This document shows, in pieces, positions 61,401 through 62,790 of a DNA stretch of 64,000 bases. The stretch is from Escherichia coli (GTDB lineage: Bacteria; Pseudomonadota; Gammaproteobacteria; Enterobacterales; Enterobacteriaceae), in NCBI RefSeq assembly GCF_030013595.1, contig NZ_CP122768.1. One strand, given 5' to 3'. Below the pieces are notes generated by a model that was not told the origin of the DNA, ran no database searches, and saw only the letters and a program-made list of their open reading frames with translations. Numbering within the stretch: the first letter of the stretch is position 1; every line of letters starts with the position of its first letter. The translations under genes were made by a program, and so were the position numbers.

Positions 61401-61662
61401 TAACGTTTTCCTTATTGATGCTATTCATTTTGGACATGCAGATCACTTTTGATGACTCACGGAATATCAGCAAAAATGATTGCGGCAAATCCTATCACCT
61501 GGCGCAATAAAAAATCATGAAAAATAAGCTGAAATAAGGACTCAAAAAAACAACTAAGAGTTATTGTTTTTTCATCGAACGGCGAAGTACCTAACTTACT
61601 AAAACACAATAATTTAAAAGTCCCCCATCCTTCCTCCTTGGGTGAAAAAAATCCATTTTAGA

Positions 61663-61713
61663 GGATGTCTGAAATGATATGTAGTTTTCTGTACGACATC
61701 ATTTCAGACATCC
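61663..61713. repeat. perfect 16-bp inverted repeat (GGATGTCTGAAATGAT ... ATCATTTCAGACATCC) with 19-bp spacer
   Basis: Read directly at 61663-61678 and 61698-61713 in the AT-rich region upstream of the TpsA gene. Confidence 0.8.
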
Positions 61714-62790
61714 GAATAAAACAACAAATTTGATGAGTTACAATTAATTTAAATCTTGTTATTTGATTAACAAAGCATCATCATTACTGCATCTCATTCT
61801 CTATATCTTTTACGTCGGGGTAGATTCTTTATGGTCATTACGGGCAGGCGACATTTCATTATATTACCACTTTCATTCACACTTGTAACCCTTAAGAGTT
61901 ATATAAAAAGGAAATAGTTCTTGCTCATGGTATTACTGAGATCGGATTAACCATGAGGTTAGCTATATAGAGAACTTTGGCTTTGCGACAATTGGCTTAA
62001 GCAGCCACATTATGCCTGGCTTATCGTTGAAAGGGAGAAAGAAGAGCAAAACGGTTTGGCAAGCTTTCATTCCCATCTAATAGCAATCACCGCTATACAT
62101 CATCCCTTAACGTACTCTGGCCTTCATAAAAATGTTATTCTAAATTAAAGATTGTAATGATTTTAATAATATTGTTATTATTTTGCAACAAATCAATCTA
62201 ACACAATGATTATTAGCGATTTTTTATTAGTTAAGAGAAATTGTTTTTACAGATTGAGCTACAATTCCGCTCATTTTTCACCACAGGAAAAGCTGAAGTA
62301 ATCTTAAATGACTGTATTAACCCTTTTCTCCGCTGCCAGCACTCTTAAATATCGTTGTTCTATTGTTATAAAAACAGCTTTTTTGACATAAAAAGTAATA
62401 GCTAAAGCCATTATGTAGCACTTCCAACCTGAATAGACCGCAAAAAACAACCCTATACAGAATAAAACTCTGTTCATCATCTTTCGGTAAGAATTAAATT
62501 ACTATATTACCGTTCAACATCAGTATGAATGAAAATTCAATTGTTATACATGTGATGAATGTCATATATTGTGCTCATCGATTGCAGGACATCGCTATTC
62601 TTTTAGAGATACAGATATCACGCTGTTACTCTCTGTATAAAGCACACGCAAAGATTAGTTGTGTTACTGCAGTTGTTATGTCGCATATGGAAAGCCCATT
62701 GTTACATCTTTAGTAAAAAGTTTTATTCACTTTCAAAATTTTTACTCCATGAAGATGGGCTGTTTTGCTGCAAGCAATTGAGTTAGTGCA

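Follow-up and report, generated by a model that had tools for sequence, protein, structure and literature searches.

A conserved, single-copy hairpin-forming inverted repeat in the AT-rich divergent control region of two acquired OI-47 operons of Escherichia coli

The non-coding DNA between tpsA and a divergently oriented 207-aa ORF on a genomic island of Escherichia coli contains a real, statistically exceptional and single-copy inverted repeat, which forms a hairpin and has been maintained in evolution. Judging from its conservation across lineages, the repeat is probably a cis-regulatory element located in the tpsA-proximal part of the control region of OI-47. As to how such an element might work, our tentative first choice, held with less than even confidence, is a stem-loop in RNA transcribed in the tpsA sense.

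The stretch of DNA analysed here (64 kb, referred to as the window) is part of the E. coli chromosome and belongs to OI-47 (O-island 47), an O157-type genomic island, according to the annotation of its best matches and of the Sakai and EDL933 genomes. The island is covered in PMC8565820 and PMC10877973; the literature on OI-47, Z1538-Z1543 and ECs1280-1283 yielded nothing about this particular intergenic region. The gap is delimited by the GTG start codon of tpsA at 61400 on the minus strand and by the first codon of the 207-aa ORF (ECs1281, 62791-63414) on the plus strand (Table 1). Downstream of tpsA, the annotation lists tpsB, acpS, an SDR gene, a fabZ-like gene, and genes for an ACP, a GcvT-like protein, a ketosynthase and an ABC transporter. 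In Pfam searches, the 1270-aa protein gave matches to a TPS domain and to haemagglutinin repeats, the protein that follows it matched ShlB/POTRA, and a fimbrial subunit was identified after the 207-aa ORF; Z1538 is the pilin of this fimbrial operon. Of 5426 complete E. coli genomes, 380 contained a single match to positions 61401-62790 (90-99.7% identity), and the carriers include the O157:H7 and O55:H7 lineage. OI-47 also receives IS1 insertions. The region is the divergent control region of two horizontally acquired OI-47 operons.

Table 1. Features of the tpsA-ECs1281 intergenic region and the genes that flank it (positions in the 64-kb window).
Feature	Position	Strand	Details
tpsA (Z1542/ECs1282)	57588..61400	-	Two-partner-secretion exoprotein; first gene of the TPS + lipid/polyketide-type operon
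AT-rich divergent intergenic region	61401..62790	.	33.6% GC, 1390 nt, zero annotated features
tpsA-proximal conserved block (contains the hairpin)	61402..61805	-	65% identity with L009
Second inverted repeat	61442..61480 (-80 to -42 from GTG)	-	ATCATTTTT-N21-AAAAGTGAT in tpsA sense, one mismatch in the window
Extended -10-like motif TGATAGGAT	61489..61497	-	Conserved in the window, L009 and L123 (TGATACGAT)
Hairpin-forming inverted repeat	61663..61713	- (strand of the favoured RNA reading)	16-bp arms, 19-nt spacer
TTGTTA-N6-TAACAA palindrome	61756..61773	.	Within the block conserved with L009
Regulator-proximal conserved block	62489..62592	+	68% identity with L009; contains TTGTTA-N18-TATATT
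Promoter-like TTGTTA-N18-TATATT	62541-62570	+	Hexamers kept in L008
207-aa ORF (ECs1281)	62791..63414	+	Divergent NarL/FixJ-like, LuxR-type HTH by predicted fold; heads the chaperone-usher fimbrial operon

An earlier reading made from the letters of the window (the sequence-only reading) had described a 1.4-kb AT-rich gap with a single ORF of at least 60 aa, and this description was borne out. The GC content of the region is 33.6%, as opposed to 49.0% in tpsA and 49.2% in the window, and the AT-rich tract continues past 62790, through the 207-aa ORF (32.5% GC), to about 63400. The ORF in question (62 aa, 62525-62713) carries a frameshift in both O157:H7 (L006) and strain 4FM (L005), and two shorter ORFs of 58 and 50 aa are likewise broken in other strains. 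An ORF of 51 aa that overlaps the tpsA start and another of 41 aa (61763-61888) are intact in 8/8 E. coli sequences, which are too similar to one another for this to mean much. RefSeq annotation of 61401-62790 contained no feature in any genome among those listed, and the Sakai RIBOseq catalogue of intergenic small genes had no entry at 1349600-1349999, a part of the gap around the hairpin. Comparative evidence supports the view that the region is non-coding. Its high A+T content (33.6% GC versus 49%) is of the kind expected of an H-NS-silenced promoter region and fits the usual xenogeneic-silencing picture; judging from base composition, the region may be silenced by H-NS. Neither H-NS ChIP nor expression data for this locus were found in the literature searched.

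The inverted repeat, GGATGTCTGAAATGAT-N19-ATCATTTCAGACATCC, occupies exactly 61663-61713, so that the perfect 16-bp palindrome upstream of the TPS operon reported in the sequence-only reading was correct in both coordinates and sequence. Its two arms (61663-61678 and 61698-61713; 16 nt each) are 100% complementary, and within the spacer (61679-61697) the trinucleotide GTA (61681-61683) pairs with TAC (61692-61694), which leaves an 8-nt apical loop at 61684-61691. The hairpin is positioned 263-313 nt upstream of the tpsA GTG, within the tpsA-proximal conserved block and 1.08 kb away from the gene for the 207-aa protein. When the region was shuffled 300 times with dinucleotide composition preserved (loop size 3-50), the longest perfect inverted repeat obtained was 12 bp, compared with the 16 bp observed, and the repeat is also the longest of its kind across the whole window. 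Folding energies of -28 to -30 kcal/mol (z about -7) were calculated for either strand.

Outside this position, no other copies of the arms were detected in the window with up to 2 mismatches allowed. A sensitive blastn search with the 68-nt hairpin region against complete E. coli genomes gave a single location per island-positive genome (380 genomes) and zero matches in the remaining 5046. Scanning one genome per prokaryotic species (GTDB representatives) for the inner arms separated by N19 gave 71 matches, all in unrelated AT-rich phyla (Bacteroidota, Firmicutes, archaea) and unlinked to this locus, and none in Enterobacteriaceae. The sequence-only reading had raised the prospect of a common dispersed repeat; at one copy per genome, and in island-positive genomes only (68-nt query), the element is not one, and REP/BIME, MITE and IS terminal repeats were rejected as its identity given that it is single-copy in 380 genomes with no second copy in the window. 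The related idea that the repeat is a remnant of a mobile element, either the collapsed terminal inverted repeats of an IS or MITE or a recombinase site, appears highly improbable. Although the arms have the form of perfect terminal-type inverted repeats, and the horizontally acquired island around them is open to IS1, the repeat is single-copy in every genome, its flanks (TTTTAGA/GGATG and CATCC/GAATAAA) carry no direct repeat that would represent a target-site duplication, and no transposase or recombinase gene was found nearby. In a diverged lineage, moreover, the repeat has been kept in place with a remodelled, still self-complementary centre.

To describe variation in the repeat, we used a set of eight distinct haplotypes: five of the E. 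coli type, two from a diverged E. coli clade (L002 and L004), and one from a distant locus found in Logan assemblies (L009/L010), at which TpsA is 89% and the 207-aa protein 54% identical to that of the window. The E. coli-type haplotypes comprise the window type, one with an apical-loop C>T change, one with a loop G>A change, the O157 type with one stem transition, and a type with a true mismatch (L005/L087), which was found in one genome and, independently, in a metagenome contig. A scan of metagenomes recovered known E. coli haplotypes only, plus an unrelated coding sequence from a gut bacterium. Across the eight haplotypes, 94.3% of stem cells were paired on the tpsA-sense strand, versus 24-45% when the 3' partners were slid by 1-3 columns. 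Both partners had been replaced in three pairs, two of them in the stem (G-C to A-U) and the third in the apical mini-stem (A-U to G-C), and the L002 clade has an extra flanking C-G pair that extends the stem to 17 bp. The two one-sided changes, found in the O157 lineage and in L004, produce G·U on the tpsA-sense strand and A·C on the other; this compatibility with G·U pairing favours the tpsA-sense strand, weakly (p = 0.25). A true mismatch was present in two haplotypes, L005/L087 and L009. Pairing is thus conserved in the manner of a cis-regulatory RNA stem-loop, as seen in only 8 haplotypes and few independent events.

Between the window and the L002 clade, positions 61626-61745 have diverged by 20%, yet 0/38 differences fall in the inner stem and most of the loop. 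The intergenic regions of the window and L009 can be aligned in two blocks only, 61402-61805 and 62489-62592, the first of which contains the hairpin. At the L009/L010 locus the hairpin has the same distance to the start codon, identical inner arms (TGAAATGAT/ATCATTTCAGA; 20/20 positions, in a block that is 65% identical overall) and the same spacer length of 19 nt. The spacer itself is of unrelated sequence and pairs again (GTGTG/CACAC, versus GTA/TAC in E. coli), leaving an 8-nt loop once more. More distant loci, with TpsA identities of 82%, 79%, 74%, 70%, 69% and 67% (Enterobacter among them), have kept the operon; their upstream DNA is unrelated and has no such hairpin, and the operon can therefore work without it.

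Compensatory change in a palindrome does not by itself require function, since quasi-palindromes in E. coli are known to be corrected by template switching, an established route of mutation. We consider it unlikely, while giving it some weight, that the repeat is a functionless quasi-palindrome that arose, and stays perfect, through intramolecular template switching during replication, in AT-rich spacer DNA that tolerates it. A single event of this sort can copy several changes between arms, so that the L002 clade could have acquired its two 'compensatory' pairs together; a growing palindrome would account for arms of 16-17 bp in E. coli against 9+2 bp in L009; haplotypes with mismatches persist in nature; and operons with other upstream regions have no repeat. 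The known quasi-palindrome template-switch hotspots of E. coli likewise have arms that change together and lengthen in one lineage. Template switching, however, keeps complementarity and not sequence, and the identity of all inner-arm positions between the window and L009 has a naive expectation of 0.65^20, or about 2e-4; the unchanged inner stem and loop within the 20%-divergent neighbourhood shared with L002 are similarly difficult to reconcile with it. The repeat differs from template-switch hotspots in that its inner arms, position and spacer length are conserved well beyond neighbouring DNA, which argues for selection and not just a mutational process.

The position is fixed, the inner arms are invariant, changes in the outer stem preserve pairing, and the spacer has kept its self-complementarity through a turnover of sequence. 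A classical operator read as double-stranded half-sites would not be expected to look like this, and as far as comparative data can tell, action as a hairpin is more likely than action as a dimer operator. If selectively maintained, such a hairpin would belong to the tpsA side of the divergent control region; it tracks that side, being conserved where the regulator is down to 54% identity. Two kinds of transcript would be candidates for carrying it: the tpsA-tpsB-lipid mRNA with a long leader, or a short upstream RNA. The latter might start from a conserved block at about -383 to -340, in which a promoter-like arrangement, TTGTTA-N16-TAAATT, is seen in E. coli and is degraded in L009. The predicted structure of about 16-21 bp with an 8-nt apical loop would then influence the stability or processing of its transcript in cis, or bind a protein.

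Several observations weigh against this RNA stem-loop. The best-conserved promoter-like element, TGATAGGAT at about -96, sits downstream of the hairpin, and if it were the only promoter, the hairpin would lie at about -180 to -230 relative to the transcription start, outside the transcript, to the advantage of a protein-binding DNA site. One template-switch event can yield compensatory changes in a DNA palindrome without selection. Few independent lineages are available, and the wobble argument comes down to the two events given above; the true mismatches in L005/L087 and L009, as well as the operons that do without a hairpin at loci with TpsA identity of 82% or less, also count against it. 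In the accessible part of the EDL933 Cappable-seq supplement, no TSS was listed at 14349xx-14363xx except antisense ones inside tpsA, although the lack of an intergenic TSS in EDL933 is what would be expected if the locus is silent in the laboratory.

Among known RNA elements, the ompA 5'-UTR hairpin and RNase III-processed leaders offer the closest likeness, in that these, too, are long, stable and locally conserved hairpins that precede an operon's first gene, and leader hairpins share with the repeat compensatory or wobble changes that keep the pairing while the loop sequence is free. The repeat differs from them in lying 263-313 nt from the start codon and upstream of the best promoter candidate, and in having no sequence or Rfam relationship to any described element. 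An Rfam search at a permissive E-value returned two sub-threshold hits only, both to miRNA models (25.9 bits versus a threshold of 53, and 22.9 versus 54), which represent a hairpin artefact. Rho-independent terminators are stable intergenic hairpins too, and a T7 run is found 11 nt downstream on the tpsA-sense strand; here, however, the stem is AT-rich, the loop measures 19 nt (8 nt after the extra pairing) and there is no abutting U-tract. An intrinsic terminator was rejected: a scan of 61300-62900 gave 0 terminator-like sites, and neither strand has a T-run in the 10 nt next to the stem. Also rejected was an RfaH ops/JUMPStart leader (GGCGGTAGnnTG), for which only a 2-mismatch chance match was seen at 61626-61637, the window-wide count being equal to chance. 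A mini-ORF, MGDF, placed behind a strong AAGGAGG just downstream of the hairpin in the tpsA sense, was discarded as its start is destroyed in the L002 clade and it is not conserved in L009.

The protein encoded on the far side of the gap is relevant to whether the repeat is a binding site. ECs1281 is almost an orphan, found in E. coli and as one relative of 54% identity, likewise encoded at the head of a fimbrial operon, and searches against Pfam and NCBIfam gave no hit at any threshold. No family member had a significant Pfam GerE or Response_reg match, with GerE sub-threshold in 3/11 members (best E = 0.003). A profile search of 1.8 billion representatives produced eight full-length remote homologues with 23-32% identity, and an AlphaFold2 model built with these homologues added reached pLDDT 82 and pTM 0.78, a confidence that depends on them (pLDDT 38 with 5 close sequences only). 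The model has a receiver-like alpha/beta domain and a C-terminal four-helix LuxR-type HTH. In a Foldseek search of the PDB, the top 30 or so hits were all full-length members of the NarL/FixJ family (RcsB, EvgA, NarL, FixJ, VraR, LiaR); their E values started at 2e-3, and probability and TM reached 1.0 and 0.53. The weak signals at sequence level point the same way, namely the sub-threshold GerE hits and an alignment of the ECs1281-family profile with the RcsB DNA-binding domain at E = 0.43. Based on its predicted fold, ECs1281 would be a very divergent NarL/FixJ (LuxR-type HTH) regulator, and the adjacent LuxR-like protein proposed in the sequence-only reading is right at that level. MrpJ of Proteus and PapX of UPEC are comparable in being small DNA-binding regulators encoded in a chaperone-usher operon that faces another surface or adhesin operon; they differ from ECs1281 in belonging to other fold families and in being encoded at operon 3' ends.

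It is possible, if somewhat doubtful in our view, that the repeat is instead recognised as double-stranded DNA by a protein, regulatory or architectural, with an effect on the tpsA promoter, the divergent fimbrial promoter, or both. The half-sites would be the conserved inner 9-11 bp of each arm, 19 bp apart, and in one version of this proposal, put forward in the sequence-only reading, the binder would be the neighbouring 207-aa NarL/FixJ-like protein, which could couple the expression of fimbriae and TPS. The inner arms are indeed invariant in all haplotypes including L009, with the spacer fixed at 19 while its sequence varies, and the repeat lies upstream of the best promoter candidate, next to the gene for a regulator of DNA-binding type by fold. 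The self-complementarity of the spacer, kept with a different sequence in L009, is left unexplained by a protein site, however, and so are the compensatory outer-arm changes unless these are mutational. The hairpin and an ECs1281 homologue co-occur in E. coli and L009, and at least L012-L014 have neither, but inheritance of the whole intergenic region from a common ancestor would explain this pattern just as well. The heptamer AAATGAT/ATCATTT of the hairpin recurs in a second conserved inverted repeat (about -80 to -42), but its enrichment is weak (3 observed versus 0.64 expected, p about 0.03), and the motif is missing from other enterobacterial genomes in the species-representative scan.

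The anatomy of the repeat also fits poorly with known operators. LuxR/NarL-type dimers bind contiguous 14-20-bp palindromes or 7-2-7 heptads. The RcsB box, the NarL 7-2-7 heptads and the 18-20-bp palindromes of lux boxes resemble the present case as promoter-upstream dyads beside the gene for a regulator of this fold; unlike these contiguous dyads, the repeat has a 16-N19-16 layout in which the centres of the conserved 9-11-bp cores are 28-35 bp apart, its spacer is self-complementary, and its changes preserve structure. Arms of 16 bp around a 19-bp spacer are equally unlike known CRP, Fur, LexA and TyrR sites. Comparison by eye with the CRP, LexA, TyrR and FNR consensus sequences gave no fit, and no Fur-box-like match of at least 13/19 was present in the window or in the L009 upstream regions. 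The geometry, together with the compensatory and wobble changes, tells against the operator for a dimeric regulator suggested in the sequence-only reading.

Other elements in the gap were examined alongside the hairpin. The second inverted repeat, ATCATTTTT-N21/22-AAAAATGAT, is conserved in three lineages (window, L009, L123) and is perfect in L009 and L123 (8-9 bp arms, N22); with the heptamer in common with the large hairpin, it may represent a second RNA stem-loop at the mRNA 5' end or, alternatively, further half-sites for one protein. The extended -10-like motif TGATAGGAT is a candidate tpsA core promoter by prediction, and a sigma-70 scan of the sequence found promoter-like sites at a count equal to chance. 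The TTGTTA-N6-TAACAA dyad was rejected as an operator: it is kept in L009, but O157 and the L002 clade have a mutated arm that reads TTATTA. A minus-strand promoter-like site at 62529-62501 was dismissed as not conserved in L008. A bolder combination of these elements, which we regard as quite unlikely, would make the hairpin and the second repeat, through their shared AAATGAT, targets of ECs1281/Z1539 in a dedicated switch by which EHEC would co-ordinate the OI-47 fimbriae with the TPS/lipid operon, or would make the hairpin the core of an unannotated small RNA of the island. In the small-RNA alternative, transcription would come from the conserved block just upstream of the hairpin.

As a conserved intergenic hairpin, the element is an otherwise ordinary new instance of a familiar feature, and of modest interest as such. 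The re-annotation of the 'hypothetical' ECs1281 as a cryptic NarL/FixJ-type regulator, by predicted fold, is a useful by-product, and so is a short list of conserved elements that can be mutated in studies of island expression. The setting of hairpin and regulator is an island that almost every O157:H7 strain and about 7% of complete E. coli genomes possess; grvA, vmpA and the fimbrial operon are part of its cargo, as is a TPS exoprotein coupled with a gene set of unusual fatty-acid/polyketide type. A conserved cis element and a cryptic regulator, the one with mutable stem positions and the other a purifiable protein, would provide handles on when this silent locus is expressed.

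Close to the tpsA start, a second inverted repeat was identified with arms kept and a variable spacer in E. coli, in the distant locus L009 and in the comparison locus L123, the arms containing one mismatch in E. coli and being perfect in L009 and L123. Directly upstream of this repeat lies a conserved extended -10-like sequence, and the repeat has the heptamer AAATGAT in common with the large hairpin; its conservation reaches more distant lineages than that of the large hairpin. A third inverted repeat was perfect across all E. coli haplotypes and was partially retained in L009 (AAAATAA...TTATTTT). 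Besides the large hairpin, the sole perfect inverted repeat of at least 12 bp in the 64-kb window was a remote one, which is unrelated to the large-hairpin finding.

Positions of the additional repeats, motifs and reading frames
Feature	Coordinates	Strand	Details
Second inverted repeat	61442-61480	minus	-80 to -42 from tpsA; ATCATTTTT-N21/22-AAAAATGAT
Extended -10-like sequence	61489-61497	minus	TGATAGGAT
Third inverted repeat	61545-61572	minus	-172 to -145 from tpsA; AAAAAACAA-N10-TTGTTTTTT
41-aa ORF	61763-61888	plus	TTG start; open in 8/8 E. coli haplotypes
Promoter-like sequence motif	62541-62570	plus	TTGTTA-N18-TATATT
ECs1281	62791-63414	plus	207 aa; annotated 'hypothetical protein'
Remote inverted repeat	12179-12225		TGACTCCTCCAT-N23-ATGGAGGAGTCA

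At both ends, the intergenic region of E. coli was homologous to that of the L009 lineage, while in the central ~680 nt (61806-62488) homology between the two was undetectable, which suggests that the centre is a replaceable, AT-rich filler separating two control modules. On the regulator side, the promoter-like motif sits in the sole regulator-proximal block conserved with L009 and a further comparison locus, L008, and is likely the promoter that serves the regulator and fimbrial operon. Transcription from this site would give the regulator/fimbrial mRNA a 5' UTR of ~210 nt. The 41-aa ORF could not be aligned in L009 and carried ~9 substitutions in the diverged E. coli clade (L002) with the frame still open; it is probably a chance ORF.

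The product of ECs1281, recognised by neither Pfam nor NCBIfam, is, by its predicted fold, a highly divergent NarL/FixJ-type regulator, with only ~10 remote homologues among 1.8 billion cluster representatives. Its N-terminal pair of acidic residues (D14, D15) is kept, as is the acidic D67 where beta-3 ends. As the position of the usual conserved Lys is occupied by an invariant Arg (R107), the receiver domain may be atypical.

The OI-47 island is decaying in some lineages. In E. coli XJ34, tpsA is split by an IS1 insertion (locus L002, 1262-1959), and in 2012C-4221, a strain that is among those matching the window most closely, the annotation gives grvA and the adjoining SDR gene as pseudogenes. 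In the L121/L122 lineage (L121, 5466-7085), tpsA is cut to 892 aa and two ORFs of 378 and 152 aa replace the single tpsB; the large hairpin upstream of the truncated tpsA is still perfect.

Beyond E. coli, the gene order tpsA-tpsB-acpS-SDR-fabZ-ACP-GcvT-like was kept in Enterobacter and metagenomic lineages (TpsA orthologues at loci L009-L014, L123 and L124; TpsA identity 59-89%), and a TpsA homologue was also present in Aeromonas. The upstream neighbours of tpsA differed entirely from locus to locus, and included secG, wza-wzb-wzc and transposase genes. The coupling of a TPS exoprotein to a lipid or polyketide-type pathway has apparently escaped earlier study, and such hard-wiring is unusual.
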